Shown here: one piece after another, positions 26,186 through 50,739 of the stretch
How the letters are laid out: the number at the start of each line of letters is the position of its first letter
Numbering within the stretch: the stretch's first letter is position 1
DNA from: a virus
Lineage: Duplodnaviria; Caudoviricetes
Virus record (IMG/VR): IMGVR_UViG_3300034116_000182
Location: 1 to 56,547 of that record
Length of the DNA stretch: 56,547 nucleotides
Strand: one strand, 5' to 3'
The notes under the pieces: generated by a model
What the model was told of the DNA's origin: nothing
Databases searched by the model: none
Seen by the model: the letters and a program-made list of their open reading frames with translations, nothing else
Made by a program: the position numbers and the translations under genes

Positions 26186-26214
26186 AACTGTAGTTAACTA
26201 CACTTTGAAAAGTG

Positions 26215-26243: not shown

Positions 26244-26268
26244 GGGCGGCATTCATGAAGGACATTCC

Positions 26269-29200
26269 ATGATCCCAAGCAAGCCCCCTATGGGCATCAA
26301 TGTAGCGAGCGATACCAAGGCAGGGCTGAGGTACGCTGACATGATTGTCGATGGGCAGAAGACCCTTGAGTCACGCAACAGCGACACACTGCGCCCATAC
26401 GTTGGTAAGCGCGTGGCGATTGTCCGCACTGGTGAAGGCAAGGCTAAGGCTATTGGTGAGGTTACTATCGGTGAGCCGAAGGTGGTGAACCAAAAGCAGT
26501 TTCGTGCGATGGAGGGCGACCACTTAGTCCCCAAGGGATCGAGGTTTGACATCAATACGCCGACCAAGCATTTGTACCCTATGCATGATCCTGTGCGGTA
26601 CGAAGAGGAGCGCGACGTTGGTCACGGTATCGTGTCGCGCAAGGTAATACATAAAGCTAAAGGTGGAGCAGTGAAACCTACAATAGATCAGATGCGCCAA
26701 GCACTGGCAAAGGGTGGCAAGGTCGAGGTACGCCCCACCGTCAAAGATGAGAACTTGATGCGCAAGATCCCTCAGATGGAAGCGGCGGCTAAAAAGGTCG
26801 AAGAGGGCAAGATGAGCCACGAGGCTTACGACAAGGTGGTTGCCAAGCACAAGCCTGTCAAGCCGTATGAGTTCGTACCACAGCCTGCGTCAGACGAGGA
26901 TGCTGACCGTGCATTGATGGAGAACAAGAAACCCCATTGGCGAGGTCACGAAAACTGGCCTTCAGGTCGCAAAGTTGGCTTACGGTTGGACATCCCTGCA
27001 TACGAGAATCACGGCGTTTGGGTTAACTCCATCCATGATGAAGAAGGTAAAGGCGACGACAAGCGCAACACATCGTATGGTTCAGTGTCGTCGGTAAAGA
27101 ACGCCACGTTTGATGCTGGCCCAAGCAAAGCGATTAAGGTTGCCACTGGTGAGCAGAACAAGGCACCGTTTGCACGTATCAAGGGTGAGCTTCACCATAT
27201 GAGCGAAGACGAGGCAGTCGAGCACATGCAGAAGAACCTGAACCACAAAGACTACATTCAAGTGGGCATGGATCCTAGGCGTCATGGCTACTTCTATGAC
27301 CGTAAGACGATGAAGCCTGTAACGCATGCCAAGCACGTTGTGCAGATTGGCCCATTGGTGCTGGCGCATAAGCCTACCTATGGTGAGCGTGAGACGTATG
27401 CCAAGGGCGGCAAAGTGCAACCAACTCAACATGAAATGCGCCAAGCACTATTGCGTAAGGCAAGCGGTGGAGTTGTGCGCATGGCTGGTGGTGGCATCCT
27501 TCAGGACGTCATTAAGAAACCCGATGCCTCAAAGCAATTAAAGGGAGTCGTATTGTCTGGTGCAAGCTGGCTGGCTGGTGATCAGAACACTAAGCTTGCT
27601 AATCAAGCCTTTGGTGAAGACGTTACGAACACAGCGGTAGGTGGGTACAAGACAGCAGATGTGCTGAACCAACTGAACGTATTTGAGAGGGATGGAGGCA
27701 CCTTCGCCCCCGGCACCACGGTGGTGTTGGACATCGGTGCTAACGACATTGCCACTGGTGTAGATCCGTCGATCACACGCGCCAACTTAGATGAGATTGT
27801 CTCTAGGCTTGGTGAAAGCGGCGTCAACATTATTATGTCTGCCCAACCGTTTGCTAACTCGTTTCAAGAAGCCATTGACAACCCCAACTTGGTGATGAAC
27901 GAGATGTACAGCGACATTGCGGCAAACAACCCGAACGTAACAGTCGTTGATGCAATGTCGGGGTTTTTGAATCAAAAGAACCTGATGGATGAGTCTGGTT
28001 TCCACTTAAACAATGAGCAGTCAAAAGCAGATTACATCAACAAGTTTGCGGATGCATACAAGGCTAGAAACCAAACAACTCCAGATGTTGTAGACACCAC
28101 GTCTACTAACACGAATCCTATTGGTGGATTGACAGCAACCACGCCAGCAGACAATGTGCAAAACAACACGAATCAGTTGGCAGACGCGACTAAACTAGTG
28201 TCACCATTGGAGCAAGCTTCATTGGTTGAGCAGACACCAACTCCACCAGAGCCGATACAGCAGGCGTCCTACAAAATGCCTGAGTACGACACAGAGTCAA
28301 ACCGCTCATTCAAGAATTTTGATGACTACGGCGGTGGCATGATGGAGCGAGCTAAAGGCGGTGAAGTAAGAAGCCCATTTGACTACGAGAACCCATCACA
28401 CGTTGAAAACGTCGCTGGTATTGCCGCCAAGCATAGGGACTTCAATCAGATTCCTGATGCGGCTAAACACTTGGCTGGCGTGTTATCGCAGGGCAGTTAC
28501 AAGTTTGTTGAAGACCCACGCATTCAGAGTGCCATCAAGCAAGCAGGTCACAACGGCTACTACATAAGTGGCAAAGATGGCAAGCAACAAATTATTCGCA
28601 AAGCCGAAGGAGGCGCTGTGTTACCTATTGAACAAGTCAAAGCTCAGATGATGAACCGATTCAAAGGTCTGAATCAACTCCAATCCATTGGCGCCGAGGA
28701 AGCCCCCAGCATGGGCATTAAAGCGTATGTACCTACCACTGGTAGCCCAGACGCTGGTCGCATGCCTGTAGGCGGTATTGACACGTCTCAAGGGGATCTG
28801 CCTGTTGGTGGGATCGACATGAGCAAGCAACAGCCCGGTCACCAATTGATGCCCAGCCAACCGGGTCAGCAACCCGGCATGGGGCAGGTGCCTATGGCTG
28901 ACCAACCCCCTATGGATAGCATGCCTGTAAAGGGCGCAATGCAACCACAGCAAGCTGGAAGCAACATCTTGAGCATGACCCCCCAAGGACAAGCGATGGC
29001 GGCTCTAAAGCCCCAAGGTTTGGCTAAGGGCGGTAGCGCTAAGTCAGTTGACGAGATGAAAGCTGAGTTGGCGGCTAAGAAAAAGGCACAAGCGGCACCA
29101 GCGGCAAGCGACGACGATGATGATGAAGAAGAGGTGAAAGCGCCGTCCAAACGCATTTTGGTTAAAGCTGAAGGCGCTGGCGGAGTGACTGGTATTGTAA

Positions 29201-30984
29201 TCCCGCACCATATGCTTCATGGTCGCAGTTGGATCAACAAAAAAGGCAAGAAAGTTGTGGTGCCGGGACTTAAAGACATCAACAAAGCACGTGCTGAAGT
29301 TTATGGTTCTGAGAACCGTGATCCCTTGAGCATTGGTCAAACGGGCAAGATCCATAAAGAAACACTTGAGGATCACTTTGCCAAGCCACTTAAAGACCAG
29401 TTAGCCTCAGAGAAGGAAGCGACTGCACGTTTGCGAGCCGCTAAACACTTGGGTTCCAAAAACAACACGTTGGACGAGTCTGAGAAGCTGGATACTGTGC
29501 GTCATGAGACGGACGAAGAGGGTCGTACCCACGTTGGATTTGCTTCTAAGGGTGTGGCAGGTCATGCACTGTACACATCTGGACACGGCAAGAATGAAAA
29601 GCATCACATCATCAACACTTGCCCCGGTCAAACAGAGGGCTGTGGTGGCGGTAAAGACTCAAAGGGTGTGATCGACACTAGCCGTGGTACCTGCTTTGCA
29701 CCCAATGCCGAATCACAGTACGTGCATGCGGCTGTTCGTCGTGCAACACACGAACAAGCCAAGCACGACCCCAAGATGACACGCGATTGGATTTTGGCTC
29801 ATACAGGATCAATGCGTGATGCGGCAAACAAAGCAGACAAAAGTAATCAACGACTTTTGTTCCGTCCTAATGTTGTGGACGAGACTGACGTGTCTTCACG
29901 CCACGTGATCCGTCACTTGAATGAACAACGTAAAGTAAACGACAAGCCACCAATTATTGCTAACTCATACGGCAAGACAAATGAGTTGCATGACCCTGAG
30001 AATGGTTACCATGTGACGCATTCGAACGTAGGCCCAAAGGTCAAGAAGGGTCAAGAGATCAGCGAGAATATTGCTCGCGACAAAGCCCGTGTTCGCAACA
30101 CCATAATGGCGTCTGACAACAAGGGTGACTTTAAAAACGAACAGGGTCACAAGACGCCACCAAAGGGTTCGTACATGGTGACTGACGTTAAGCGTGGCTC
30201 TGAAATGTCTAAGAACATGGAGAAGCACATCACTCACGCCAAGTACTGGACGACTGGACGTGAACAGTATGAGTTGACACCGCAAGAGAAAGAAGAAGGC
30301 GCAGAAGGACATTTTGGTGGCAACGGCAAGCCTTCAAGCGAAGACGAGGCTCACTATGGTCATAAAACCATTGATGGAAAGCGTTATGACTACCAGAAGC
30401 AACACATCTTGCACCCACGCTTGGTGAACGTTCCTATTCGTAAAAAGAACAAAAAGACTGGTGAAATGGAAACTAAGGATCACATGATCCCTACAGATTC
30501 ACGTTTCAAAGACACTGAGTTCTTGCCCAAAAATAAATTTAAAACTAAAAATGGCAAAGACGCTGGTCACATCTTGATGACCACGCCTACTGAGTCCACA
30601 AGTAACATTGGTCACGAGACTTCATTCACTCACAATGTAAGCCCCAAGCACATCGAGCATGCAATTGAGAACAAAGGCGAGTACGAAATTGACAAACCAG
30701 AAGATCAAATTAAAGCTTCTAACAAAGAGTACCGCGCACCACAATCAATTAAGTTTTATGCTGGAGGCGGTCAAGTTGGTGGTCGTCACATTGGCTTTAG
30801 CGATGATGATTTCCATGCGTTCCCTGAGCAAAACGTGGTTGCACAACGTCACTTAGCTATGCGTGGACATGATCATGAACCAGTTGCAAAACACGGTTTG
30901 TCGAATACCAAACGCAAAGTTACAATGAACAAAGACATGGACACCATGTTGTTAGAACTGACACGTAACAAGAAAGCCAAATGA
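26269..30984 (+). CDS. Multi-domain (polyvalent) protein, about 1571 aa: ASCH-like, unknown, SGNH hydrolase, unknown, GP88-like domains joined by AxGGxV linkers
   Basis: YADMIVDGQKTLESR (ASCH); GAS/G/GAND/GFH blocks (SGNH); CPGQTEGC...CFA...FRPN...NSYGK (GP88-like); AAGGA RBS before ATG 26269. Confidence 0.75.
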   Translation: MIPSKPPMGINVASDTKAGLRYADMIVDGQKTLESRNSDTLRPYVGKRVAIVRTGEGKAKAIGEVTIGEPKVVNQKQFRAMEGDHLVPKGSRFDINTPTKHLYPMHDPVRYEEERDVGHGIVSRKVIHKAKGGAVKPTIDQMRQALAKGGKVEVRPTVKDENLMRKIPQMEAAAKKVEEGKMSHEAYDKVVAKHKPVKPYEFVPQPASDEDADRALMENKKPHWRGHENWPSGRKVGLRLDIPAYENHGVWVNSIHDEEGKGDDKRNTSYGSVSSVKNATFDAGPSKAIKVATGEQNKAPFARIKGELHHMSEDEAVEHMQKNLNHKDYIQVGMDPRRHGYFYDRKTMKPVTHAKHVVQIGPLVLAHKPTYGERETYAKGGKVQPTQHEMRQALLRKASGGVVRMAGGGILQDVIKKPDASKQLKGVVLSGASWLAGDQNTKLANQAFGEDVTNTAVGGYKTADVLNQLNVFERDGGTFAPGTTVVLDIGANDIATGVDPSITRANLDEIVSRLGESGVNIIMSAQPFANSFQEAIDNPNLVMNEMYSDIAANNPNVTVVDAMSGFLNQKNLMDESGFHLNNEQSKADYINKFADAYKARNQTTPDVVDTTSTNTNPIGGLTATTPADNVQNNTNQLADATKLVSPLEQASLVEQTPTPPEPIQQASYKMPEYDTESNRSFKNFDDYGGGMMERAKGGEVRSPFDYENPSHVENVAGIAAKHRDFNQIPDAAKHLAGVLSQGSYKFVEDPRIQSAIKQAGHNGYYISGKDGKQQIIRKAEGGAVLPIEQVKAQMMNRFKGLNQLQSIGAEEAPSMGIKAYVPTTGSPDAGRMPVGGIDTSQGDLPVGGIDMSKQQPGHQLMPSQPGQQPGMGQVPMADQPPMDSMPVKGAMQPQQAGSNILSMTPQGQAMAALKPQGLAKGGSAKSVDEMKAELAAKKKAQAAPAASDDDDDEEEVKAPSKRILVKAEGAGGVTGIVIPHHMLHGRSWINKKGKKVVVPGLKDINKARAEVYGSENRDPLSIGQTGKIHKETLEDHFAKPLKDQLASEKEATARLRAAKHLGSKNNTLDESEKLDTVRHETDEEGRTHVGFASKGVAGHALYTSGHGKNEKHHIINTCPGQTEGCGGGKDSKGVIDTSRGTCFAPNAESQYVHAAVRRATHEQAKHDPKMTRDWILAHTGSMRDAANKADKSNQRLLFRPNVVDETDVSSRHVIRHLNEQRKVNDKPPIIANSYGKTNELHDPENGYHVTHSNVGPKVKKGQEISENIARDKARVRNTIMASDNKGDFKNEQGHKTPPKGSYMVTDVKRGSEMSKNMEKHITHAKYWTTGREQYELTPQEKEEGAEGHFGGNGKPSSEDEAHYGHKTIDGKRYDYQKQHILHPRLVNVPIRKKNKKTGEMETKDHMIPTDSRFKDTEFLPKNKFKTKNGKDAGHILMTTPTESTSNIGHETSFTHNVSPKHIEHAIENKGEYEIDKPEDQIKASNKEYRAPQSIKFYAGGGQVGGRHIGFSDDDFHAFPEQNVVAQRHLAMRGHDHEPVAKHGLSNTKRKVTMNKDMDTMLLELTRNKKAK

Positions 30985-33500
30985 TGGACGAACTTGACCC
31001 AACACAAGATCCCATGATCACTGAGAATGAAGACGGCAGTGCTGATGTAGATCTGCCTGATGATCTGTCTGAGATCGAGGAGATGCCTGATGGATCGGCT
31101 GTTGTCACGATGCCTGACGGTGGCCCTGAAGAAAATCCAGACTTCTACTCCAACATGGCGGAGTCATACGACGAATATGATCTGTCTAAGTTGGCTATGC
31201 GTTATACCGACTTGCTCAAAACTGACAAGTCAGCGCGTGAGCAGAGGGATAAGCAGTACGAAGAGGGTATCAAGCGCACGGGTATGGGCAATGATGCGCC
31301 CGGCGGCGCCACCTTCATGGGTGCCAGCAAGGTAGTTCACCCTGCTATGGCTGAGGGCTGTGTTGACTTTGCCGCCAAAGCTATTAAAGAGATGTTCCCA
31401 CCTGACGGCCCTGTTCGCACTAAGGTGCTGGGCAAGATGGACGACATTAAATCTGAGAAGGCAGAGCGCAAACGCGACTACCTAAATTGGCAGATCACTG
31501 AGCAGATCGAGGAGTTCAGGGATGAGCAAGAGCAGTTGCTGACGCAGTTGCCATTGGGTGGCTCACAGTACTTCAAAATTTGGTTTGACGAGCAGAAGAA
31601 ACGTCCCTGCGTGGAGTTTGTTCCAATTGACAGGATCATTTTGCCGTTTGCCGCGAGTAACTTCTACACAGCACAACGTGCCGCTGAGGTTCATGAGATC
31701 ACCGCATGGGAATTCAATCGTCGAGTAGCCAGCGGTATGTACCGCAACATCGACATGATCCCCAACACGATGGAGCCTGAAATGTCGAAGGCTCAGAAGG
31801 CGACCAATAAGATTGAAGGTAAGAAGTTTGAAGACAACGACGATGGTTTGCGTAACGTCTACCACATCTACACTTACTTGGAGTTAGAAGAAGACAAGTA
31901 CACCAAGGGTGAGATGGCTCCTTACATCATAATGATTGACGAGTTGGACAACGAAGTCATTGGTCTGTACCGTAACTGGGAAGAGCAAGACGAAACGATG
32001 ACCAAGCTTGATTGGATTGTGGAGTTCAAGTTCATTCCTTGGAGGGGTGCATATGCGATTGGATTACCTCATCTTATTGGCGGTCTGTCTGCCGCTCTTA
32101 CAGGCTCTTTACGCGCTTTATTGGACTCTGCCCATATCAATAATGCCGCAACCATGCTCAAGCTCAAGGGCGCAAAGATGTCTGGTCAGTCACAACAGGT
32201 GGATGTGACGCAGATTGTGGAGATTGAGGGAGCGCCGGGCGTCCAAGACATTCGCCAGATCGCCATGCCCATGCCGTTTAACCCACCTTCAGAGGTCTTA
32301 TTTAGGCTCCTAGGCTGGTTAGATACAGCGGCGAAGGGGGTAGTGTCCACCTCAGAGGAAAAAATTGCTGACGTCAACGCTAATGCCCCTGTAGGCACCA
32401 CTCAAGCATTGATTGAGCAGGGAGCGGCGGTGTTCTCATCGATCCACGCACGTTTGCATGAGTCACAAGCGCGTGTATTGAAGATCTTGTGCCGGCTAAA
32501 CCGTTGGCACTTTGACGAGATGCGCAAGTCTGACGTGGTTGCAGATCTGGAGATCAGCCGCGAAGACTTCCAAAAGAACACGGACGTAATTCCTGTATCT
32601 GATCCGCATATCTTCTCTGAGACACAGCGTATGGCTCAGATGCAAGCTGTGTTGTCATTAGCAGATAAACACCCTGAGCAGTTCAACATGAACAAGGTGT
32701 TGGCTCGCTCGCTCAAGCAGATGAAGATACCTAACATCAATGAATTGATGAAGGATGTCCCATCGCCTGAACAGCGTACTTCTGCTGACGAGAATGCGGC
32801 TATGTTGATTGGTCAGCCAGCGTATGCGTACATGCAACAGGATCACATTGCTCACATTCAGGATCACTTGCAATTTGCGATGAACCCATTCTTGGGCCAG
32901 TCACCGTTTGCAGATCCCGGCTACCTGAACAACCTGATCGAGCACATTAAGCAACACATGACCTTGTGGTACTTGAACCGCAGTAACGGTTACGTGGCTC
33001 AGTCTCGCAACGGTAAGCCCGTGGACAACTACGATGATCCAATGCTCACAGGCACCATTGACCAGCTTTACACGGCTGTTGGTGCTCACGTTGGCATGGA
33101 TACAAAGGAAGTGTTTGAGCAGTTTGCTCCAGCGTTCCAAGCGCTTATTCAGCAAGCACAGAAGCGCAAAGATGCACAGAAGCAAGTGCTACCGCCAGAT
33201 GCACAAGTTGTCAAAGACACAAACATGGCAGAGACTCAGCGCAAGACGCAAGAGGATCAAGCTCGTTTGCAACTCGACACTCAAAAATTGCAGATGGATA
33301 TGCAAAAGCACCTCGAAGACAACAAGACAAAGATTGCCATCGAGAATGCAAAGCTGACACATCAAACGATTACGGATATTGCAACTACGCAAATGCCCGA
33401 AACCGCGCCTACAATGGGCGCACCAATGGCAGAGATGCCGCAACAAGGTATGCCAGAAGGCATGCCACAACCTCAAGGAGTTCCAAATGTCAACATCTGA
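30981..33500 (+). CDS. Portal protein
   Basis: 839 aa after TerL; HP.MAE.CV.F.A.A..E.FP..GPVRTKV, LPL.GS...K, APVGTT.ALIEQG motifs. Confidence 0.9.
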   Translation: MMDELDPTQDPMITENEDGSADVDLPDDLSEIEEMPDGSAVVTMPDGGPEENPDFYSNMAESYDEYDLSKLAMRYTDLLKTDKSAREQRDKQYEEGIKRTGMGNDAPGGATFMGASKVVHPAMAEGCVDFAAKAIKEMFPPDGPVRTKVLGKMDDIKSEKAERKRDYLNWQITEQIEEFRDEQEQLLTQLPLGGSQYFKIWFDEQKKRPCVEFVPIDRIILPFAASNFYTAQRAAEVHEITAWEFNRRVASGMYRNIDMIPNTMEPEMSKAQKATNKIEGKKFEDNDDGLRNVYHIYTYLELEEDKYTKGEMAPYIIMIDELDNEVIGLYRNWEEQDETMTKLDWIVEFKFIPWRGAYAIGLPHLIGGLSAALTGSLRALLDSAHINNAATMLKLKGAKMSGQSQQVDVTQIVEIEGAPGVQDIRQIAMPMPFNPPSEVLFRLLGWLDTAAKGVVSTSEEKIADVNANAPVGTTQALIEQGAAVFSSIHARLHESQARVLKILCRLNRWHFDEMRKSDVVADLEISREDFQKNTDVIPVSDPHIFSETQRMAQMQAVLSLADKHPEQFNMNKVLARSLKQMKIPNINELMKDVPSPEQRTSADENAAMLIGQPAYAYMQQDHIAHIQDHLQFAMNPFLGQSPFADPGYLNNLIEHIKQHMTLWYLNRSNGYVAQSRNGKPVDNYDDPMLTGTIDQLYTAVGAHVGMDTKEVFEQFAPAFQALIQQAQKRKDAQKQVLPPDAQVVKDTNMAETQRKTQEDQARLQLDTQKLQMDMQKHLEDNKTKIAIENAKLTHQTITDIATTQMPETAPTMGAPMAEMPQQGMPEGMPQPQGVPNVNI

Positions 33501-36535: not shown

Positions 36536-37450
36536 ATGGCCGCCCCAATGCGCAGTACGGACTTTAGAAGCATCGTTGAACCTATTCTCAACGAGTGCTT
36601 CGATGGAGTCTATGACCAACGAGCCGACGAATGGAGCCGTGTGTTCCGTGAAGAAGATGGCATTCCCCGTAACTACCACGAAGAACCCGTCTTGTACGGT
36701 TTCGGCGCGGCACCTCAGTTGCCTGACGGCACTCCTGTGACGTACCAACAAGGTGGTGTGTTGTTCCTCAAACGCTATGTGTACAAAGTGTATGGCCTTG
36801 CCTTCGCTCTGACCAAAGTGTTGGTGGAAGACGGTGATCACATCCGTATCGGTCAAGTTTATGCACGTCACTTGGCACAGTCTTTGGTGGAAACCAAAGA
36901 GTTGTTGTCAGCTAACGTGTTGAACACAGCGTTCAGCTCAAGCTACCCCGGTGGCGACGGCGTGTCCCTGACCAATACTGCTCACCCAATTGTGAACGGT
37001 ACATTCAGCAACCAATTGGCTACATCTGCCAACTTGTCCCAGACTTCTTTGGAACAAATGTTGATCCAGATCCGTCAAGCAGTTGACAACAACGGCAAGA
37101 AGATTCGTTTGGTTCCACGTCAATTGATCGTGGCTCCCGGCAACATCTTCCAAGCTGAAGTTCTCTTGAAATCTGTCTTGCGTACAGGTAACGCAAACAA
37201 CGACATCAACCCTGTCAAGTCCATCGGTTTGTTGGACGAAGGCGCGGCTGTTCTGTCACGTTTGACTAGCCCTACAGCATGGTGGGTTCAGACCGACGCT
37301 CCTGAGGGCTTCAAGCTCTTGATGCGTCGTCGTTTGGAGAAAACTATGGAAGGTGACTTCGAGACTGACTCTATGCGCTACAAAGCGACAGAGCGTTACG
37401 ACGTTGGCTTCACTGACCCTCGTGCCGCCTACGGTACAGCAGGCGTCTAA
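36536..37450 (+). CDS. Major capsid protein (HK97 fold, Mu gpT-like)
   Basis: GFG.AP...G..V.Y, GGDGV.L....HP, P..LIV.P, ME.DFET...RYKA.ERY..G..DPR..YG. Confidence 0.92.
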   Translation: MAAPMRSTDFRSIVEPILNECFDGVYDQRADEWSRVFREEDGIPRNYHEEPVLYGFGAAPQLPDGTPVTYQQGGVLFLKRYVYKVYGLAFALTKVLVEDGDHIRIGQVYARHLAQSLVETKELLSANVLNTAFSSSYPGGDGVSLTNTAHPIVNGTFSNQLATSANLSQTSLEQMLIQIRQAVDNNGKKIRLVPRQLIVAPGNIFQAEVLLKSVLRTGNANNDINPVKSIGLLDEGAAVLSRLTSPTAWWVQTDAPEGFKLLMRRRLEKTMEGDFETDSMRYKATERYDVGFTDPRAAYGTAGV

Positions 37451-38506: not shown

Positions 38507-39646
38507 ATGGGACAATTTAAACCAATGGTCAAAATGATGACCACTGAGCCTTCAGTTATTCTGAAGCTAAAGAAAGGCGGCAAAGTAGAGCACAAGATGG
38601 ACGGTGGGTATATGCCCATGCAGTCAACTATGCCTGCTCAAGCAATGCCAGCAATGCCTGCTCGTGGTGGTTTAGCTTCTGCGGCTAGCCCCATGAAACC
38701 GTCTATGGCGGCTCGTCGCAAGGCGATGATGGCAAAGCCTGCTATGAGTCCTACCCTGATGAAAAAAGGTGGTAAGACTGACAAGCATGAAGACGCCGCT
38801 CAAGATCGTGCAATGATCAAAAAGGCTATGGCTGGTAAGAAGTTTGCAACTGGTGGCGTTGTCAACGGTCAAGGTGGCTTCAAGGATGGTGGCATCATCA
38901 AGTCAACCAAGGGCGAGACAAAGATGGTAACTTCCAAAGTTGACCACTCACCTGCCAAAACTGGCGGTGTGAAGTTGGGCAATGGCGGTGGTTATGCTAC
39001 TGGTGGCGTTGCTAAGGCTAATGGTGGTGGTTACAAGATGGGTGGTTCCACAAAAAAAGCCTACGCGACGGGGGGAACTGTTGATACAGGCAAACCCGTC
39101 GCGATGCCCAAAAAGCCAGTATCAAAGCCAATAGCAAACAGTTTGCAGTCTGGAACGTTTGCTAAAGGCGGTAAGGTCGAGAAAGCGGAAAAACCAAACC
39201 TCCGCCTTATCAAGACTTACACTGGCCCTAAAGGACACGTAGCAAAAGTTTACAAGGATCGTGACTGGCAAGAGTACAGAACTAAGTTCTATACTCCTGA
39301 CGGTAAGTATCTAACTGAAGGCGACTCACACACTGATGACGCTGAAGATGCTCACTCAACAGCCAAGAACCAAGTAGAACACTCTCGCTATAAGCATGGT
39401 GGCACAGCGAAACGCTATAACACTGGAAGCACCGTAGACGCATCAAAAGGCGCATACGATAAATCTATTGGGCCAAGCGAGAGCGATATGGACATGGCGA
39501 AAGCTATCCGTAGCGTTCCACGCAAGCTGTTTGAAGGTGCGAAGAGCATGATGGGTATGACCCCCAAGCCTGCTGGTAGTGTTACAAAGACTGAGAAATC
39601 AGTTACTGTGACTCCTGCTGGCAAAAAGCGTGGTGGTGGTTGTTAA
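38507..39646 (+). CDS. Basic protein with about 10 GG motifs and a probable -1 frameshift
   Basis: AAGGAG RBS; LKKGGKV, FATGGVV, YATGGTV, FAKGGKV and others; ends KKRGGGC*. Confidence 0.8.
   Translation: MGQFKPMVKMMTTEPSVILKLKKGGKVEHKMDGGYMPMQSTMPAQAMPAMPARGGLASAASPMKPSMAARRKAMMAKPAMSPTLMKKGGKTDKHEDAAQDRAMIKKAMAGKKFATGGVVNGQGGFKDGGIIKSTKGETKMVTSKVDHSPAKTGGVKLGNGGGYATGGVAKANGGGYKMGGSTKKAYATGGTVDTGKPVAMPKKPVSKPIANSLQSGTFAKGGKVEKAEKPNLRLIKTYTGPKGHVAKVYKDRDWQEYRTKFYTPDGKYLTEGDSHTDDAEDAHSTAKNQVEHSRYKHGGTAKRYNTGSTVDASKGAYDKSIGPSESDMDMAKAIRSVPRKLFEGAKSMMGMTPKPAGSVTKTEKSVTVTPAGKKRGGGC
39052..39103 (+). other. Candidate programmed -1 ribosomal frameshift signal
   Basis: In-frame A_AAA_AAA, 5-nt spacer, perfect 9-bp stem CGCGACGGG/CCCGTCGCG; the -1 frame stops at 39082-39084. 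Confidence 0.7.
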
Positions 39647-39651: not shown

Positions 39652-39677
39652 GTGGGGGCTTCGGCTCCCACTTTTTA
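39652..39677 (+). terminator. Rho-independent terminator
   Basis: GTGGGGGC-TTCG-GCTCCCAC-TTTTT. Confidence 0.9.
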
Positions 39678-40472: not shown

Positions 40473-40883
40473 ATGTCTGCCAAAGAAAAAGCCATGAAAA
40501 AAGCTAACGGTGGCTCTACAAGCCCGTATGACTACGATAGTGACGTTGACTACTACAGTGCAATTGGTCGCCTCAAAGAAGAAGGCGATGAGTCGCAAGA
40601 AGCACCTCGCATTAGCTCTGCTGTTTTAAACAAGCAAAAGACTATGCGCAGAAAGAATGCGGCGGACAGTGCAATGTCACTGGCGGCTAAACGTGCTGGT
40701 GATAAAGACGCTGACAAAAAAGTTCAAGATCGTTGGTCGCGTCGTGATCAATCTGAAAAATTAAAGTTCAAAGCCAAAACATCAAAAGCACCTGTTGCTG
40801 AGTCTGCTCGTAAAGAGTGGTCTGAAAAGATCGGTAAGGGCAAACCCGCTCCATTTAAAACAGGTGGCAGTTCCTGCTGGTAA
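40473..40883 (+). CDS. Basic hypothetical protein with GG motifs at both ends
   Basis: KKANGGST ... FKTGGSSCW*. Confidence 0.7.
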   Translation: MSAKEKAMKKANGGSTSPYDYDSDVDYYSAIGRLKEEGDESQEAPRISSAVLNKQKTMRRKNAADSAMSLAAKRAGDKDADKKVQDRWSRRDQSEKLKFKAKTSKAPVAESARKEWSEKIGKGKPAPFKTGGSSCW

Positions 40884-40886
40884 ATC

Positions 40887-41063
40887 ATGAAACAAGGTCT
40901 ATATGAAAATATTCATCGAAAACGTGAAAGAATCGCTAAAGGGTCTGGCGAGAAGATGCGCCGAGTTGGTAGCGAAGGTGCGCCAACGTCTAAAGCCTTC
41001 AGGCAATCCGCCAGAACAGCCAAAATGAAGGATGGCGGCAAGATGACAAAGTCTTGCTGGTGA
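40887..41063 (+). CDS. Small basic protein, 58 aa (GLY.NIH.KR.RI..GSGEKMR family)
   Basis: Read by hand; ends MKDGGKMTKSCW*. Confidence 0.75.
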   Translation: MKQGLYENIHRKRERIAKGSGEKMRRVGSEGAPTSKAFRQSARTAKMKDGGKMTKSCW

Positions 41064-41065
41064 TC

Positions 41066-41314
41066 ATGGCAAAGAACCCATCTTTAGCTATTGGTCGCGG
41101 TGAGAAGCTCCCTGCAAAACAGGGCGCTGGTTTGACTGCAAAAGGTCGAGCCAAGTACAACCGCGAGACAGGATCAAATTTAAAGGCCCCACAACCGCAA
41201 GGTGGTGCGCGTAGGGACTCGTTCTGCGCGAGGATGGGGCCAGTCGCTGAGAAGAGCGAAAAAGGCAGTAGAGCGCGAGCTTCAATGCAACGGTGGAATT
41301 GCCCCGGATGGTAA
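41066..41314 (+). CDS. DUF6321-like small basic protein
   Basis: GLTAKGRAKYNRETGSNLKAP...RRDSFCARM...W.C. Confidence 0.7.
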   Translation: MAKNPSLAIGRGEKLPAKQGAGLTAKGRAKYNRETGSNLKAPQPQGGARRDSFCARMGPVAEKSEKGSRARASMQRWNCPGW

Positions 41315-41323: not shown

Positions 41324-42397
41324 ATGGCATACAGCGGCACAGTCGGTCAAACAGTCGTCACGGTTCAAAACCTGATTGACAACGGAGCACGTCGGTGCGG
41401 TAAGCTGGCTGAGGAGTTGACTTCTGAGCAGGTTCTGAGCGCAAAACAATCGTTGTTTTTTCTTCTGAGCAACTTGATCAACCAAGGTATCCAGTATTTC
41501 GCCATCAAGAAGTACGTATACGGGCTTCAGCCGAATAAATACGAGTACCTGCTACCTGTGGGTGGGAATGACGTTTTAAACGCCCTATACCGCTGGATGA
41601 CACGTCCAACGGGTGGTTATACGACATCGGCTGGTGGAACTGTTGCGAATATCTATGATGGCGACGTTGCAACGTACTGCCAACAAACAACTGCAAACGG
41701 CAATTTTGTAGTTAACTACGGAACAAACCAACCTCAATACATTGGCTCTATTGGCTTTATGCCTTATGTGGCTGGTGGTGGTAGCGCGACGTGGAGTTAT
41801 GCATTCCAAGCGTCTACTGACGGTACTACGTGGACTACGCTGTACACGGGTACAAGCGTCACTGTGACTGACGGACAGTGGATTTGGGAAGACATAGACC
41901 CCGGCGCAAACGTCCAGTACTATCGTTTTCTTGCTACTGGTGGAACAACTTTGGCTGTGCGTGAGTGGTATCTTGGAGTTAACTCCACTGAAATCACGAT
42001 GGCTCGCTTGAATCGCGACGACTACACAAACCTGCCCAACAAGAATTTCACTGCAAACCAGCCGTTTCAGTTCTGGTTGAACCGCACAATCCCTCAGGCG
42101 ACGATCACGTTATGGCCTACGCCATCTGACGCCTTCTATCAAATGACGGTGTGGTATTCAGCCCAGATTGAAGATGTGGGTGCCTTGAGTAATCAATTGG
42201 CTATCCCTGATCGTTGGATGTTGGCTATTCAGAGTATGTTGGCTCACCAGATGAGCTTGGAGTTGCCGCAAGTTGATTTGGCACGTATCACGTATCTTGA
42301 AGGTCAAGCTGAGAAGTACTTCATTATGGCGGAGCAAGAAGAGCGCGATAAGTCGCCAATCTACTTTGCGCCGAATATTGGTGTGTACACAAGGTAA
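41324..42397 (+). CDS. Head-tail adaptor/tail tubular A-like protein with inserted discoidin-like domain
   Basis: A.RRCG...SA..SL..LL..L.NQG; RLNRDDY.NLPNK...P.Q.W; LWPTP; insert DGD..T...STDG..WT...YYRF. Confidence 0.7.
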   Translation: MAYSGTVGQTVVTVQNLIDNGARRCGKLAEELTSEQVLSAKQSLFFLLSNLINQGIQYFAIKKYVYGLQPNKYEYLLPVGGNDVLNALYRWMTRPTGGYTTSAGGTVANIYDGDVATYCQQTTANGNFVVNYGTNQPQYIGSIGFMPYVAGGGSATWSYAFQASTDGTTWTTLYTGTSVTVTDGQWIWEDIDPGANVQYYRFLATGGTTLAVREWYLGVNSTEITMARLNRDDYTNLPNKNFTANQPFQFWLNRTIPQATITLWPTPSDAFYQMTVWYSAQIEDVGALSNQLAIPDRWMLAIQSMLAHQMSLELPQVDLARITYLEGQAEKYFIMAEQEERDKSPIYFAPNIGVYTR

Positions 42398-45237: not shown

Positions 45238-46101
45238 ATGTCTCTTAGTAAAGTTGGCGGGATTCTCTCTGCTGGTTTAAACGGCATTAACTACCCTGTC
45301 ACAGCGGTGGAATACCTTGTCGTGGCTGGTGGAGGTGGTGGTGGTCGAGAAACTAATACTTCTGGCGTTGGTGGTGGTGGTGGTGCTGGCGGCTTATTAA
45401 CTGCAACGGGACTTTCTGTTGCTATTGGGACTGCGTACACAATAACTATTGGCGCTGGTGGTGCAGGACTAAATACTTCAACGGGTGCTGTTGGAAATAA
45501 CGGCTCTAATTCTGTATTTAGCTCTATTACTGCAATTGGTGGTGGCGGTGGTGGCGGTACAACTTTACAAGCTGGCGCTGTTGGTGGCTCTGGCGGTGGT
45601 GGTTCTATTTCTGGTGGCGGTGGTGCGGCTGGAACGGCTGGACAAGGTAATGCAGGGGGAACGCATAACACAACATATAACTCCGCTGGTGGTGGAGGCG
45701 GTGCTGGCTCTGTTGGTGGTAATGCTGGCGCTTATGGTGGCGGTAATGGTGGAACAGGATTAGTTTCATCAATATCTGGCGCACAAATTCAATATGCTGG
45801 CGGTGGAGGCGGCGCTACTACTTTAACAAACGCATCTTTAGGTGGAGGTGGAGGCGGTGGCAACGGCTCAATTTATACATCATCATCGTTTGGTGGTGGT
45901 GGTTTGGCTAATACAGGTGGCGGTGGTGGAGGTGGTTCAAATGGCCCTGCACCGTCAGGCGCTGGCGGTTCAGGCATCGTAGTCATTCGCTACCCATCTT
46001 ACTTAGCCCCTGCCACATCAACAACAGGCAGTCCTGAAATGGTTGTATCTGGCGGTTGGCGCGTGTACACATTTGTTGCATCTGGAACAATTACATTCTG
46101 A
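45238..46101 (+). CDS. Glycine-rich adhesin-like protein 1 (one domain)
   Basis: VEYLVVAGGG...GGGGAGG...YAGGGGG...NTGGGGGG...GGSGIV.IRY. Confidence 0.8.
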   Translation: MSLSKVGGILSAGLNGINYPVTAVEYLVVAGGGGGGRETNTSGVGGGGGAGGLLTATGLSVAIGTAYTITIGAGGAGLNTSTGAVGNNGSNSVFSSITAIGGGGGGGTTLQAGAVGGSGGGGSISGGGGAAGTAGQGNAGGTHNTTYNSAGGGGGAGSVGGNAGAYGGGNGGTGLVSSISGAQIQYAGGGGGATTLTNASLGGGGGGGNGSIYTSSSFGGGGLANTGGGGGGGSNGPAPSGAGGSGIVVIRYPSYLAPATSTTGSPEMVVSGGWRVYTFVASGTITF

Positions 46102-46107
46102 GGATAT

Positions 46108-47793
46108 ATGGCACAAGGTCTTTTTACACTCAGACAAGTTAACCAAGCTATTCGTCAAGGCGCATGGTCAGCATTTAATCCACCTCAATTTGTAGAGTAC
46201 CTTTGCGTTGCTGGTGGTGGTGGTGGCGCTGGTGTCAGTACAGGTAGCGCACAAGGTGAAGGTGGAGGCGGTGCGGGTGGTTTATTAACAGGCATGGTTC
46301 CTGTTGTTGCTGGCACTTCTTATACGGTTACTGTTGGTGGCGCAGGCGCAGGGGGTGGCTCTAACGCTTCAGGTACTCAAGGTGATAATTCTGTCTTTGG
46401 CTCTATAACTACCACGGGTGGCGGTAGAGGTACTGCAAATGCCGTAGGTGGTAATGGTGGTTCTGGAGGTGGTGGTGGCAGAGGTGATGGCACTAACTTC
46501 TACGCTGGTGGTCAAGGAGTTACAGGACAAGGAAATTCAGGCGGCAGAGGATTAGCAGATGGTCAAGGCGGTGGCGGTGGCGGTGCAGGGACTGTTGGTC
46601 TTGTTGGTTCCGGTGCTGGTGCTGGAGTGCCCGCTGGTAATGGGGGAGCTGGAATAGCAAGTGCCATATCTGGAACAGTTACTACCTATGCTGGCGGTGG
46701 TGGTGGTGGATGTGCCACATCAGGTTCTGGTGCTGGTGGAGTAGGCGGTGGTGGTAATGGTGGTGTTGCATCTGCTGGTTCCGCAGGAACTGTTAACACT
46801 GGCGGTGGAGGCGGTGGCGCTGGAGGTTCAGGCTCCTTTTCTGGAGGTTCAGGCGGTTCAGGCATCGTAGTAGTCAGATACCCCGGCTCTGTGCAGTTTT
46901 ACACTGGTGGAACTGTTACTTTAAGCGGCATTAGCCCTAATGGTTATTTTGTTGTTCACACATTTACAACTACTGGGACATTGGCTCCAACTACGCCTAC
47001 AAATTTAGTCTCAACACTACCTTCTAATACAGCAGTCTTCTATACATCAGGTGTGTGGACAGCCCCTGTCGGTGCTACGCAAGTTCAATATCTTGTGGTA
47101 GCTGGTGGAGGTGGTGGAGGAATGACTAATACTGCTGGCGGTTATTCAGCCGCAGGAGGTGGTGGTGCTGGTGGATTCTTAACGGCTACTGGTCTTTCTG
47201 TCACTGCTGGAACTACATACACTGTAGTGGTTGGTGCTGGTGGTGCTGGTGCAGTAACAGAAGGCACAGGGGTTACAGGTTCAAGTTCTATTTTTAGTTC
47301 TATTACTGCTACAGGTGGCGGTGGTGGTGGTAATGCTGGCGCTACTCCTAACAATGGTTTGTCTGGTGGCTCTGGTGGCGGTGGTTCTGGTGGCGCTAGT
47401 GGAAATACTGGCGGCGCAGGCACTGGCGGTCAAGGTAATGCTGGTGGTTCAACTACTGGAAATATTTTCGGTGGTGGCGGCGGCGGCGGTGCTGGAGCCG
47501 CTGGTTCTGGTGGTGCTGGACAATACAATGGTTTCGCAGGAGGCGTTGGCTTAACATCTTCGTTGATTGGCTCATCTACTTACTATGCTGGCGGTGGTGG
47601 CGGTGGAGGTTATTACTTAAATACTGGCGGTGCTGGTGGTACTGGCGGTGGTGGTGCAGGCGCATCAAACGTCCCCGCAATTGCTGGAACTACTAATACT
47701 GGTGGTGGTGGCGGTGGTAATAACGGAACCTCAAGCGCAGTACAAGTTGGCGCAAACGGCGGCTCTGGCATTGTGATTATTAAATGGAGTTGA
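46108..47793 (+). CDS. Glycine-rich adhesin-like protein 2 (two domains)
   Basis: Two copies of the same Gly-rich domain. Confidence 0.8.
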   Translation: MAQGLFTLRQVNQAIRQGAWSAFNPPQFVEYLCVAGGGGGAGVSTGSAQGEGGGGAGGLLTGMVPVVAGTSYTVTVGGAGAGGGSNASGTQGDNSVFGSITTTGGGRGTANAVGGNGGSGGGGGRGDGTNFYAGGQGVTGQGNSGGRGLADGQGGGGGGAGTVGLVGSGAGAGVPAGNGGAGIASAISGTVTTYAGGGGGGCATSGSGAGGVGGGGNGGVASAGSAGTVNTGGGGGGAGGSGSFSGGSGGSGIVVVRYPGSVQFYTGGTVTLSGISPNGYFVVHTFTTTGTLAPTTPTNLVSTLPSNTAVFYTSGVWTAPVGATQVQYLVVAGGGGGGMTNTAGGYSAAGGGGAGGFLTATGLSVTAGTTYTVVVGAGGAGAVTEGTGVTGSSSIFSSITATGGGGGGNAGATPNNGLSGGSGGGGSGGASGNTGGAGTGGQGNAGGSTTGNIFGGGGGGGAGAAGSGGAGQYNGFAGGVGLTSSLIGSSTYYAGGGGGGGYYLNTGGAGGTGGGGAGASNVPAIAGTTNTGGGGGGNNGTSSAVQVGANGGSGIVIIKWS

Positions 47794-47794
47794 A

Positions 47795-48658
47795 ATGAGT
47801 CAAACTTTATTAGGTGGATTCATTTCCGCAACCTTTAACCCACTGTCTGGTGCGCCTACGACTGTTGAATATCTAGTGGTTGCTGGTGGGGGTGGCGGCG
47901 GTGGTTACTTTGGTGCTATTGGCGGTGGCGGTGGCGGTGCTGGTGGTCTTTTAACTGCGGCGGGGTTTACTGTTGCGACTGGTTCTGCTTTAACCATTAC
48001 TGTGGGTGCTGGCGGTGCGGGTGCGGCTAGTAACTCTGGTGACTTAGGAACTGTGGGATCAAATTCTGTTTTTAGTTCTATTACTGCAACAGGTGGAGGT
48101 GCTACTGGTGCGTATAACGCAGCACAGTCTCAGAACGGGGGTTCCGGCTCGGGATCAACTTACGCTTCTGGTGGGGGAACAGGAGTAGCAGGACAAGGAT
48201 TTGCTGGTGGTACTTCTTCAAACTCATACTCCGGAGGCGGCGGTGGCGGTGCTGGATCAGTCGGACTTGTAGGAACTCAAGCAGTTAAAGCCGGAGATGG
48301 CGGTACGGGGCTATGCTCTACCATAACTGGCTCAAGAGTCTTCTATGCTGGTGGTGGTGGAGGTGGAACAGATTCTTATGTAGCTGGACTTGGCGGTGGC
48401 GGTGGTGGTGGGAACGGTGCGTATGCAGGGACGATGCCGTCTGGTAGAACCACGGCACAAGCAAACACAGGTGGCGGTGGCGGCGGCGGCTTTACAACAT
48501 CGGTAGTCACTCAAGGCAACGGAGCCTCTGGAATCGTCATCATTCGTTACCCTGCATCACAATTGCCTCCTACTTCTACAACAGGAAGCCCTCAGATAAA
48601 CTACGCTGATGGGTATCAGATTTACACTTGGACATCTTCTGGCACTATTACTTTTTAA
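47795..48658 (+). CDS. Glycine-rich adhesin-like protein 3 (one domain)
   Basis: Paralogue of 45238-46101, same length (287 aa). Confidence 0.8.
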   Translation: MSQTLLGGFISATFNPLSGAPTTVEYLVVAGGGGGGGYFGAIGGGGGGAGGLLTAAGFTVATGSALTITVGAGGAGAASNSGDLGTVGSNSVFSSITATGGGATGAYNAAQSQNGGSGSGSTYASGGGTGVAGQGFAGGTSSNSYSGGGGGGAGSVGLVGTQAVKAGDGGTGLCSTITGSRVFYAGGGGGGTDSYVAGLGGGGGGGNGAYAGTMPSGRTTAQANTGGGGGGGFTTSVVTQGNGASGIVIIRYPASQLPPTSTTGSPQINYADGYQIYTWTSSGTITF

Positions 48659-48667
48659 GGAGCAAAC

Positions 48668-49021
48668 ATGAGCCATTTCGCAAAAGTAGAGAACGGTGTA
48701 GTGACGCAAGTCATCGTCATCGAGCAGGACGTTTTAAACCTTGGTCACTGGGGCGACCCAGCACTTTGGGTGCAAACAAGTTACAACACTTCCGGTGGAG
48801 TTCACTCGCAAGGTGGTACGCCATTGCGTAAGAACTACGCTGGTATTGGTTACACATACGACTTAGGCCGTGATGCATTTATTCCCCCCAAGCCATTTGC
48901 GTCTTGGTTGTTGGATGAAGCCACTTGCCATTGGAATGCGCCTACACCCATGCCTGTAGAAGAAGGCAAGCGTTTCACATGGGACGAACCCACAACATCT
49001 TGGGTTGAAGTAACCGCCTAA
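48668..49021 (+). CDS. Tail-fibre-associated protein, 117 aa
   Basis: MSHFAK...WVQTSYN...RKNYAGIGYTYD...DAFIPPKPF.SW.LDE..C.W.AP family that accompanies Gly-rich fibres. Confidence 0.75.
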   Translation: MSHFAKVENGVVTQVIVIEQDVLNLGHWGDPALWVQTSYNTSGGVHSQGGTPLRKNYAGIGYTYDLGRDAFIPPKPFASWLLDEATCHWNAPTPMPVEEGKRFTWDEPTTSWVEVTA

Positions 49022-49032
49022 TAGGAATAATC

Positions 49033-50739
49033 ATGGCTCAATACAGTGGAATGTGGACGTTAAGTCAAGTCAGTCAGGCCGTAAAAGACTTGAATTGGAC
49101 GGGCATTCCTCCGTCTGTTGTTGAGTATTTGATTGTTGCTGGTGGAGGCGCAGGCGGTAGTTCTCCTGCTCAAGAAGTTGCTGGAGGAGGTGGCGGCGGC
49201 GGGGGCCTACTTGCGGGGTATGCAGGTATTACATCTGGAACTTCATACACAGTAACTGTTGGTGCTGGTGGTACGCCAATTACTGAAACTTGGGGTGGTC
49301 TAGGTGGCGACTCTGTATTTAATTCTATTACTGCCACAGGTGGTGGTGGTGGCGGCGGTGGAAGCACTGCTCCCGGAACAAAAACCATAGGTCGAAGTGG
49401 CGGTTCAGGTGGTGGAGCCGCTGGTTGGAGTTCAGGAAGTTACCTTGGTGGTAATGGAATTTCTGGTCAAGGTAATAGCGGTGGCTCTGGAGGTATTGCT
49501 TACAACAATGGCGCTGGTGGAGGTGGCGCTGGAACTGTGGGAGCAGACTTTGGCCCTGTTGCGGGGAATACAGTAAATGGTGCAGTTGGTGGTTCTGGGG
49601 TTGCAAGCGCAATTAGTGGCACAGTAATAACTTATGCGGGTGGCGGTGGCGGTGGCGGTGGATACATTGCTACATTTTCTGGCGGTTCAGGCGGCGTAGG
49701 AGGCGGCGGTGCAGGGGGTAGTTCAAGTGCCACTACTGGAATCTCTGGAACCGCCAACACAGGCGGCGGAGGAGGAGGTTGCGCTGGTTTAAATACGGCT
49801 GGTGCTAAAACTGGTGGATCAGGCGGTTCAGGCGTTGTCATTCTTCGCTACCCCGGCTCAATTCAATATTTTACTGGCGGCACAGTCAGTATGGCTGACA
49901 ACTATGTTATTCACAGATTTACATCTTCAGGTACATTGGCTCCTAGTACACCTTCTGTAATCGCTTATTCTGCGTCTTACTTGGTTATCGGTGGCGGCGC
50001 TGGTGCAGGCTCACAAGCTGGTGGCGGAGGTGGCGGTGCTGGTGGATTACTGACAGGATCATCTGCACTTGTGTCTGGTGTTGTTTACCCAATCACGGTA
50101 GGTGGCGCTGGTGTTGGTGGTGCGGCGGGTGGAAATGCTGGACTTCAAGGAGGCATTTCTTCTTTTAACGGCATATTGGCATACGGTGGCGGTCGAGGTT
50201 CTACAGACAATACGCTTTCACAAGCAGGCGCTACGCAAGGCGGCTCTGGTGGCGGTGGTAACTACAACTACACAACTGGCGGATTAGGCATAACTGGTCA
50301 AGGAAATGCTGGTGGAACTGGTTTTTCAAACTATGCTGGCGGTGGTGGCGGCGGAGCAGGAGCCGTAGGTAGTAATGCAACATCAGGAACTGTTGCTGGA
50401 AACGGTGGTAATGGTTTAGCTAGTTCAATTACTGGATCATCGGTCACTTACGCTGGCGGTGGCGGTGGCGGTACAAACGGCACGACCGCAGGTACTGGGG
50501 GTACTGGAGGCGGTGGAAACGGCACATTAACTTCTACAGGCGGTAATGCAACATTCTATGGTGGTGGAGGCGGTGGTGGAGGCGGTTCCGCAACTGGAGG
50601 TAACGGCTATGCGGGTGTAGTAATCCTATCCATGCCAACTGCAAGTTATACAGGTACAACTACGGGTTCACCTGCGGTAACAACATCCGGGTCAAATACT
50701 ATTTTGACATTTACGGCAAGCGGTAGTTACACCGCCTGA
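49033..50739 (+). CDS. Glycine-rich adhesin-like protein 4 (two domains)
   Basis: SGMWTL N-terminus plus two Gly-rich domains. Confidence 0.8.
   Translation: MAQYSGMWTLSQVSQAVKDLNWTGIPPSVVEYLIVAGGGAGGSSPAQEVAGGGGGGGGLLAGYAGITSGTSYTVTVGAGGTPITETWGGLGGDSVFNSITATGGGGGGGGSTAPGTKTIGRSGGSGGGAAGWSSGSYLGGNGISGQGNSGGSGGIAYNNGAGGGGAGTVGADFGPVAGNTVNGAVGGSGVASAISGTVITYAGGGGGGGGYIATFSGGSGGVGGGGAGGSSSATTGISGTANTGGGGGGCAGLNTAGAKTGGSGGSGVVILRYPGSIQYFTGGTVSMADNYVIHRFTSSGTLAPSTPSVIAYSASYLVIGGGAGAGSQAGGGGGGAGGLLTGSSALVSGVVYPITVGGAGVGGAAGGNAGLQGGISSFNGILAYGGGRGSTDNTLSQAGATQGGSGGGGNYNYTTGGLGITGQGNAGGTGFSNYAGGGGGGAGAVGSNATSGTVAGNGGNGLASSITGSSVTYAGGGGGGTNGTTAGTGGTGGGGNGTLTSTGGNATFYGGGGGGGGGSATGGNGYAGVVILSMPTASYTGTTTGSPAVTTSGSNTILTFTASGSYTA

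Follow-up and report, generated by a model that had tools for sequence, protein, structure and literature searches.

To our knowledge, the known frameshifts of phages are almost all either the shift that yields the tail chaperones G and GT or C-terminal extensions of capsid or tail proteins. Here, we describe a signal in a gene for a 379-amino-acid protein, at positions 38507 to 39646 of a 56,547-nucleotide (nt) viral sequence (Duplodnaviria; Caudoviricetes; IMG/VR record IMGVR_UViG_3300034116_000182). This whole sequence is referred to below as the window and the gene, which lies in the head module, as the frameshift gene. In our judgement, what the gene carries is very probably a true cassette for programmed −1 ribosomal frameshifting, canonical for bacteria and of the truncating type, and a chance origin of the signal appears very unlikely. 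The anatomy of the signal, its conservation, the constraint at synonymous sites, the covariation of the stem, and the selection on the −1 tail were computed here; it is from these that we infer the occurrence and efficiency of slippage and the roles of the products.

The closest described build is that of Escherichia coli dnaX, the source of tau and gamma, where A_AAA_AAR on tandem Lys codons is followed by a short-spaced stem-loop and an early −1 stop and yields a truncated product (PMC5009743; 10.1101/2025.10.02.679949). By itself, A_AAA_AAG gives 14–16% shifting in E. coli systems (10.1101/2025.10.02.679949). CsoS2 of alpha-carboxysomes is a disordered, repetitive, and basic protein inside an icosahedral protein shell, with a frameshift in its repeat region (PMC11481516; PMC5009743). 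As for the tail chaperones G and GT, neither product is reported in virions. In the full-text literature searched, we found no account of the present protein family or of any phage head-module gene whose product is truncated by a shift.

The frameshift signal in the window

The elements of the signal, and the parts of the gene to which they relate, are as follows (an asterisk after residues marks a stop).

38507 to 39646, plus strand: zero-frame gene, 379 amino acids, MGQFKPMVKMMT...KKRGGGC*
39052 to 39058, plus strand: slippery heptamer A_AAA_AAA, in the zero-frame register X_XXY_YYZ (ACA AAA AAA, 39050–39058)
39059 to 39063, plus strand: spacer of 5 nt between heptamer and stem
39064 to 39103, plus strand: predicted stimulatory hairpin, with a stem of 9 base pairs (bp) formed by 39064–39072 and 39095–39103, plus an inner 4-bp helix
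39058 to 39084, plus strand: −1 frame tail SLRDGGNC with its TGA stop (39082–39084)
39070 to 39076, plus strand: second in-frame heptamer, G_GGG_GGA, within the 5′ arm of the stem; a slip there enters the same −1 frame (...ATGGNC*)
39059 to 39643, plus strand: part made only without the shift (195 amino acids), comprising a conserved block, a folded insert, a helix, and a conserved end

The zero-frame codons at the site read ACA AAA AAA GCC TAC GCG ACG GGG GGA ACT GTT GAT, and those of the −1 frame past the slip read AGC CTA CGC GAC GGG GGG AAC TGT TGA. The 5′ arm of the stem, CGCGACGGG (39064–39072), is perfectly complementary to the 3′ arm, CCCGTCGCG (39095–39103), and in the inner helix CTGT (39078–39081) pairs with ACAG (39086–39089). 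RNAfold yields exactly this hairpin, at −24.8 kcal/mol compared with −13.5 ± 2.8 for shuffled sequences (z −4.08), and none of 200 shuffles is as stable. The preliminary description, made by a model from the sequence alone, had listed the in-frame heptamer, the spacer, the perfect stem with its inner helix, the −1 frame reading KKSLRDGGNC up to the stop, and products of 192 and 379 residues; every one of these elements was read exactly as described. Scanning for promoters and terminators gave no hit at the frameshift site, so the hairpin is not an intrinsic terminator.

We propose the following course of events. Ribosomes would decode the tandem Lys codons AAA AAA (39053–39058) as the stable hairpin, starting 5 nt downstream, reaches their mRNA entry channel. 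Some of these ribosomes would then slip back one base on A_AAA_AAA, read the eight −1 codons (SLRDGGNC), and stop at the TGA at 39082–84, releasing a predicted short product of 192 residues (residues 1–184 plus eight), while the non-slipping ribosomes would complete the 379-residue protein. The two products would share the N-terminal 184 residues, and each would end in a lone cysteine. In this way, the shift would determine what proportion of the molecules carry the conserved C-terminal module and what proportion lack it.

Conservation of the heptamer

As checks to be made in homologues, the preliminary description had proposed conservation of the heptamer, covariation of the stem, and persistence of the −1 stop. 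A first scan of IMG/VR gave 592 relatives among 599 candidate stretches, and 78 loci were kept; together with the window and GenBank record MW202545.1, these form a first set of 80 rows, with 72 distinct genes. The set was widened by two further IMG/VR scans, seeded with a divergent member and with a naturally short member, and by one GTDB scan, so that the total stands at 179 distinct coding sequences. The aligned Lys-Lys is coded NNA AAA AAR in 80 of the 80 rows of the first set, and A_AAA_AAR is present at the aligned site in 177 of the 179 distinct homologues, as AAAAAAA in 75 and as AAAAAAG in 102. One of the two exceptions, L140 (1501–2325), has Gly-Lys-Arg at the site and encodes 275 amino acids that end ..KKTYGGAC* shortly past the SGTFKKGG block; it may represent a lineage producing a single form. 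The other, L166, is a contig of a metagenome-assembled genome (MAG) whose frame is garbled ahead of the site.

The base that precedes AAA AAR is A in 177 of 177 cases at the site, against 37 of the 762 such pairs elsewhere in the same genes, where C (396), T (196), and G (133) make up the rest. Because A precedes so few of the other pairs, accidental slippery heptamers seem to be avoided in these Lys-rich genes, and this suggests that there is selection against them away from the site. The same constraint is visible codon by codon in the 72 distinct genes of the first set. The codon before Lys-Lys always ends in A, with a variable amino acid (GCA 41, ACA 22, TCA 5, CCA 2, CAA 1, and GTA 1), and Lys183 is AAA in all 72, AAA being used for 1703 of 3995 Lys codons overall. 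When excess codon identity is calculated in sliding windows, the gene-wide maximum, 0.39, falls at residues 181–189; the next windows are the overlapping 184–192, at 0.35, and, away from the site, one at 0.30.

The glycine codons that follow show a similar pattern. Gly189 is GGG in 67 of the 72 genes, compared with 198 of 4058 Gly codons overall, and [AT]GG is coded NNG GGG GGN in 130 of 133 cases at the site versus one of 659 elsewhere. The window has two further copies of the motif, FATGG and YATGG, and these use ACT GGT GGC where the site uses ACG GGG GGA. The preliminary description had called these Gly codons atypical. This is true in so far as GGT (28) and GGC (17) account for 45 of the 53 Gly codons of the gene; nevertheless, with GGA used five times and GGG three, there are six other GGR codons, and GGG GGA at residues 189–190 is thus unusual but not unique.

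The G-run raises the question of whether the slip might take place, wholly or partly, at G_GGG_GGA (39070–39076), giving ...KKAYATGGNC* with the same last four residues. This heptamer is in frame, it is kept as G_GGG_GGN in 67 of the 72 genes of the first set, and it would lead into the same −1 frame. It lies, however, within the 5′ arm of the stem, so that it lacks a correctly spaced downstream structure, and it is missing from a large divergent clade, named VC* after its −1 tail, that retains A_AAA_AAG. In addition, the G-run is otherwise explained by the stem and by the Gly-Gly of the −1 frame, and it is more likely to have been kept for these than as a slip site. As an account of the signal, we regard a slip at the G-run as having very little probability; as a minor route beside the A heptamer, it is possible.

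Conservation and covariation of the stem

Covariation was evaluated in 52 distinct 62-nt segments. The fourth pair of the stem (positions 16 and 58) is formed by the third bases of an Ala and a Val codon, and it occurs as UA in 25 segments, GC in 18, CG in two, and UG in one, with six unpaired or other. Compensatory changes are seen as GCG/GTC, GCT/GTA, and GCC/GTG, in each case at the last base of the Ala and Val codons. Covariation scores 0.192, with a shuffled mean of 0.119 and none of 500 shuffles reaching the observed value; slid controls gave 0.031 to 0.117.

Thirteen loci do not have the proximal 3′ arm. When 100 to 140 nt were folded, the usual 5′ arm (GCYACGGGG) was seen in 10 of these 13 to have its partner in a distal arm, CCCCGTRGC, which lies some 60 nt farther on. 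This distal arm lies in the codons of a conserved Arg-Pro-Val-Ala, and U-A/C-G covariation is found there also. The covariation that the preliminary description had proposed as a check is therefore present at synonymous sites, and in both the proximal and the distal arms. In the VC* clade, where [YF]A[RDEK]GG comes straight after Lys-Lys, the stem is again either proximal (TGACGGNG...CNCCGTCA) or distal (GCTAGGGGYGG...CCRCCCCTGTNAGC).

A simple helix criterion, which asks for an unbroken helix starting 2 to 9 nt past the heptamer, gives helices of at least 8 bp at 148 of 177 sites, compared with 283 of 1622 control positions in the same genes, and helices of at least 7 bp at 174 of the 177. 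On a FastTree tree calculated with the site masked, there are at least 10 switches between proximal and distal arms and at least 20 changes of pair type, a count that leans towards pairing since the types were read only inside detected helices.

These results bear on transcriptional slippage, in which RNA polymerase would stutter on the A-run and the short form would be made from mRNAs one A longer or shorter. The run of seven As in the window is in its favor, and slippage on an A-run is a known other route to the same products in dnaX of some bacteria (PMC5009743). Yet 102 of the 177 homologues have just six As (AAAAAAG). Transcriptional slippage usually needs about nine or more, and six is shorter. 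Moreover, the codon register NNA AAA AAR, kept in 177 of 177, is relevant to re-pairing of tRNAs and not to a polymerase, and a conserved, covarying hairpin is located at ribosomal spacing. A weaker point is that contigs from four metatranscriptome runs span the site with no A-run indel among the differences listed, as contigs drop minor variants and show neither expression nor strand. We consider the probability of a polymerase origin to be slight indeed, and ribosomal slippage to be the better account of the A heptamer.

The −1 frame tail and its cysteine

In the 177 genes that have the heptamer, the −1 tail is 8 residues long in 119, 2 in 42, 9 in eight, 6 in seven, and 3 in one. Exactly one Cys is present in 171 of the 177 tails, terminal in 149 and internal in 22, and in no case are there both. 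The terminal Cys has been lost in 28 genes, and in 22 of these 28 an Arg codon has become Cys. This exchange affects the third residue of the tail, as in SLCYGGSSR and ALCYGGRS. The −1 stop also persists, with the single Cys ahead of it, as the overlapping zero-frame residue varies: the stop is TGA where that residue is Asp or Glu, TAA where it is Asn or Lys, and TAG where it is Ser coded AGT.

It had been suggested in the preliminary description that the −1 frame recreates a GG-x-C end. The cysteine part of this suggestion holds well, with one Cys at or near the end in 171 of 177. The GG part does not, as only 130 of the 177 tails have GG and the VC* clade (tail VC*) has none; the cysteine, rather than GG, is accordingly the universal feature of the tail. 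The zero-frame protein ends in Cys in 159 of 174 complete genes, and the remaining 15 all keep a Cys-bearing −1 tail.

Among the 120 short proteins listed from the database, three (P0128, P0170, and P0191) carry a −1-type tail in frame 0 (..KKSVRHGGSC, ..KKVC, and ..KKALRYGGSC, respectively). Each is either a homopolymer error of the assembly or a rare DNA variant in which the short form is coded without a shift. Could the two forms then arise by phase variation of the DNA, with slipped-strand mispairing in the A7 or G6 tract toggling genomes between long and short? Apart from these three cases, for which assembly errors could account, the evidence points the other way: 177 of 179 distinct assemblies are in the long-form frame, tracts of 6 to 7 bases are short for efficient phase variation, and neither a covarying RNA stem nor a codon register would be needed. 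Of the explanations considered, we give phase variation the slimmest chance.

Points for and against recoding

Several observations weigh against programmed frameshifting or reduce the force of the counts given above. Some of the conservation at the nucleotide level is accounted for by the zero-frame peptide KK-x-[YF]A-x-GG...PVAMP, which is conserved in its own right, and, because homologous sequences are related, raw counts overstate their independence. By the strict criterion, 29 of 177 sites have a helix shorter than 8 bp, and no match to Rfam at E ≤ 10 was obtained in 38800–39400. An upstream Shine-Dalgarno-like stimulator is not part of the signal, as GGAG, GAGG, or AGGA occurs 5 to 18 nt upstream in 7 of 177 genes versus 45 of 885 controls. 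Six of the 177 tails have no Cys whatsoever, and a final Cys is also present in 92 of 443 −1 tails that follow Lys-Lys elsewhere in these genes; the three short database proteins described above belong here as well.

Some of these points would suit an explanation without any recoding, according to which the hairpin serves mRNA stability, a translational pause, or an RNase site, the heptamer is a by-product of Lys-Lys, and the −1 open reading frame is meaningless. The conserved zero-frame peptide agrees with it, and so do the A-runs of the window: AAAAAAR occurs 36 times where 35.8 are expected. The A-run alone is thus at chance frequency, and the significance of the site lies in frame, stem, tail, and conservation. 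It is here that the explanation falls short, since it accounts neither for the third-position A before Lys-Lys (177/177 versus 37/762) nor for AAA instead of AAG at Lys183 (72/72), and it leaves the kept −1 stop, the rule of one Cys per tail, and the compensation of Cys for Arg without a reason. We therefore consider it highly improbable and prefer a programmed, truncating −1 shift at A_AAA_AAR.

The protein and the part removed by the shift

The product of the frameshift gene is a very basic protein (isoelectric point about 10), and Lys (56), Gly (53), and Met (26) are abundant among its 379 residues. AAGGAG lies 6 nt before its ATG, and its N-terminus, MGQFKPMVKMMTTEPSV, is invariant among homologues. 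Most of the AF2 model is of low confidence, with 232 of 379 residues at pLDDT below 50. The protein contains the [YF]ATGG repeats FATGG, YATGG, and YATGG, and the frameshift site is at the last one. No Pfam family matches at E ≤ 0.01, and a family profile has no match among PDB sequences at E ≤ 1. Database relatives number 5133 at E ≤ 0.001 among 8000 scored candidates, and the best 120 of the 5133 are named just "hypothetical protein", with no domain assigned. On the basis of gene position and composition, the protein is probably disordered, basic, and head-associated, whether internal, scaffold-like, or cementing. A complex prediction of the capsid protein with residues 1–60 of the protein, run without controls, gave a score of 0.00, which speaks neither for nor against an association.

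Past the site, there is a conserved block up to about residue 224, with invariant columns at V192, G195, PVAMP, and SGTFxxGG. The sole confidently folded part of the model comprises residues 231–291 (about 39197–39379; pLDDT about 85), with four strands plus a helix. A helix at 325–348 and the conserved C-terminal end, SVTKTEKSVTVxPxKKRGG..C, follow. The folded part matches phrog_7884 and small stand-alone phage proteins, among them proteins of 60–70 amino acids from the Pseudomonas phages Alpheus, uligo, phiPMW, and shl2. Many homologues lack it or have something else in its place, and it looks like a mobile small domain placed between Gly-Gly linkers.

The shift would remove 195 amino acids in the window and 41 to 265 across the family. 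A globular insert had been noted in the preliminary description as present only in the long form. The insert is indeed folded and downstream of the site, but it is not what the shift is about: a natural short subfamily of 177 to 265 amino acids (e.g., L167, with 187) is without the insert and retains the whole cassette, heptamer and tail included. What all long forms have in common is the block past the site and the C-terminus with GG and Cys.

In a fold search with residues 226–299, the best hit, an AP2 DNA-binding domain at Z 7.1, was within the noise range of the tool and was rejected. BFVD returned only uncharacterized small phage proteins as matches to the AF2 model, and the ESM Atlas only unnamed viral clusters, with scores of at most 0.83. 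The x-G-G motifs were also considered as sites for an adenovirus-type protease; this was rejected, as a comparison of 30 window proteins with Pfam showed no protease gene and the residues before GG do not fit.

Genomic setting

The window resembles a phage genome of about 56.5 kb. The genes of interest are listed here in order.

24746 to 26185: large terminase
30981 to 33500: portal
listed between portal and major capsid protein: GroES-like gene
36536 to 37450: major capsid protein
between major capsid gene and frameshift gene: 325-amino-acid protein rich in Thr, Ala, and Gly
listed after the frameshift gene: phrog_8198 protein
40473 to 40883, 40887 to 41063, and 41054 to 41314: three small basic proteins, listed after the phrog_8198 protein
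41324 to 42397: SU10-type adaptor
after the SU10-type adaptor: several Gly_rich_2 fibre-like genes

The frameshift gene sits between the major capsid gene and the SU10-type adaptor gene. As it is flanked by these, we assign it to the head module and not to the position of the tail chaperones, in agreement with the preliminary description, which had remarked that this is not the usual place for a tail-chaperone shift. The module is podovirus-like, in view of its SU10-type adaptor and of a portal akin to those of podophages: the relatives of the window portal are Caulobacter phage RW and its kin (45.5% identity), Roseobacter CRP-901/902, and Pelagibacter HTVC027P/023P. In Caulobacter phage RW, two reading frames translated after the capsid gene are unrelated to the frameshift-gene protein. 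Among GenBank records, MW202545.1 alone is close; it comes from an uncultured phage of 57 kb. A tblastn comparison with 50,697 phage records found only this record for the N-terminal part of the protein and three Pseudomonas phage records for the insert. The distance from the capsid gene to the frameshift gene varies across loci, so the intervening 325-amino-acid gene must be variable or absent in relatives.

Across the compared loci, the capsid protein is 87–100% identical and the frameshift gene only 40–96%. The DNA sources listed for the gene are chiefly lake-water and freshwater metagenomes. Of the six contigs from GTDB MAGs (L161–L166), four bear the label Betaproteobacteria, Burkholderiales, or Burkholderiaceae and one the label Hyphomicrobium; these labels hint weakly at the host range, binning being no proof.

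The three small, very basic proteins encoded downstream end ..TGGSSCW*, ..GGKMTKSCW*, and ..RWNCPGW*, the last being DUF6321, and the proteins of relatives at these three positions likewise end in -SCW, -NCW, or -NCPGW. A C-terminal Cys, often with Trp after it, seems to be common to this part of the head module.

Other features of the window are given for completeness. Right behind the stop codon of the frameshift gene, at 39652–39676, GTGGGGGC TTCG GCTCCCAC followed by TTTTT looks like an intrinsic terminator, although the consensus scan did not list it. Two genes are very large: one at 439–6027 (1862 amino acids), with no Pfam family, and one at 26212–30984 (1590 amino acids), between terminase and portal, whose product has a GDSL lipase/acylhydrolase domain and matches ASCH and GP88 weakly. 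At 45238–50739 and 52718–53359, there are four consecutive Gly_rich_2 (PF21722) genes and a second SU10-adaptor-like gene, which is 11 kb past the first.

Implications and comparison with known systems

If our interpretation is correct, uncultured lake phages that form a very large family have, in one gene of the head module, a conserved truncating shift of the dnaX/CsoS2 build. It would give a handle on a protein of unassigned role, namely two isoforms, each with one obligatory cysteine, and a removable C-terminal module. It would also be a clear natural case of dual coding: one stretch codes for a conserved peptide, folds into a covarying RNA stem, and supplies a −1-frame tail that is under selection, and evolution has shifted the 3′ arm of that stem from one of two positions to the other. 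As gene callers annotate the long form only, the short product would be missing from every database entry of the family.

What might the cysteine be for? It is tempting to speculate, though we think it rather unlikely, that a lone Cys is a functional C-terminal tag on head-module proteins, either anchoring them covalently (by disulfide or thiol) or addressing them to the inside of the capsid, and that the frameshift sets the stoichiometry of two Cys-tagged disordered "threads". With the same reserve, such a tag would be borne by the long form (..RGGGC*), by the frameshift form (..GGNC* or ..VC*), and by the small basic downstream proteins ending -SCW* or -NCPGW*. If this were so, the threads would organize the capsid interior or the packaged DNA as a phage counterpart of CsoS2A/B, and the alternative frame would have been selected to rebuild the same terminal signal.

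With E. coli dnaX, the predicted phage signal shares each of the elements described at the outset. The protein, on the other hand, is unrelated: it has no Pfam family, no PDB sequence match, and no homology to the DnaX clamp loader. The signal itself departs from that of dnaX in having no upstream Shine-Dalgarno-like stimulator (7/177), in a −1 tail of 2 to 9 residues that is itself selected for one Cys, and in a 3′ arm that may be proximal or about 60 nt distal.

Like the lambda-type tail chaperone pair G/GT, the frameshift gene would be a phage morphogenesis gene in which a conserved −1 shift fixes the ratio of two products with a shared N-terminus (PMC5009743; PMC10885494). The G/GT shift extends into a second open reading frame, whereas the present one truncates, ending after eight codons, and G/GT lies between the major tail and tape-measure genes, whereas the frameshift gene lies between capsid and adaptor genes. 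Head-module recoding that yields two related structural products is described for gene 10A/10B of T7 and T3, for Lactobacillus phage A2, and for Listeria phages (PMC5009743), and the present locus would be similar in this respect. It differs from those capsid-gene frameshifts in that the gene concerned is not the capsid gene (36536–37450) and in that 41 to 265 amino acids are removed. The G/GT and capsid-extension shifts of phages add sequence, and the shift proposed here removes it.

In its design, the locus may also be compared with CsoS2A/CsoS2B. In both, a disordered, repetitive, basic protein would undergo a shift within its repeats that gives an isoform without the C-terminal module. The resemblance is one of design only, for there is no sequence relationship (no Pfam family at E ≤ 0.01 and no PDB match), and the setting is a phage head module rather than a bacterial microcompartment, one in which the phage protein may bind to the shell. 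A further distinction from CsoS2 is that both phage isoforms would end in Cys.

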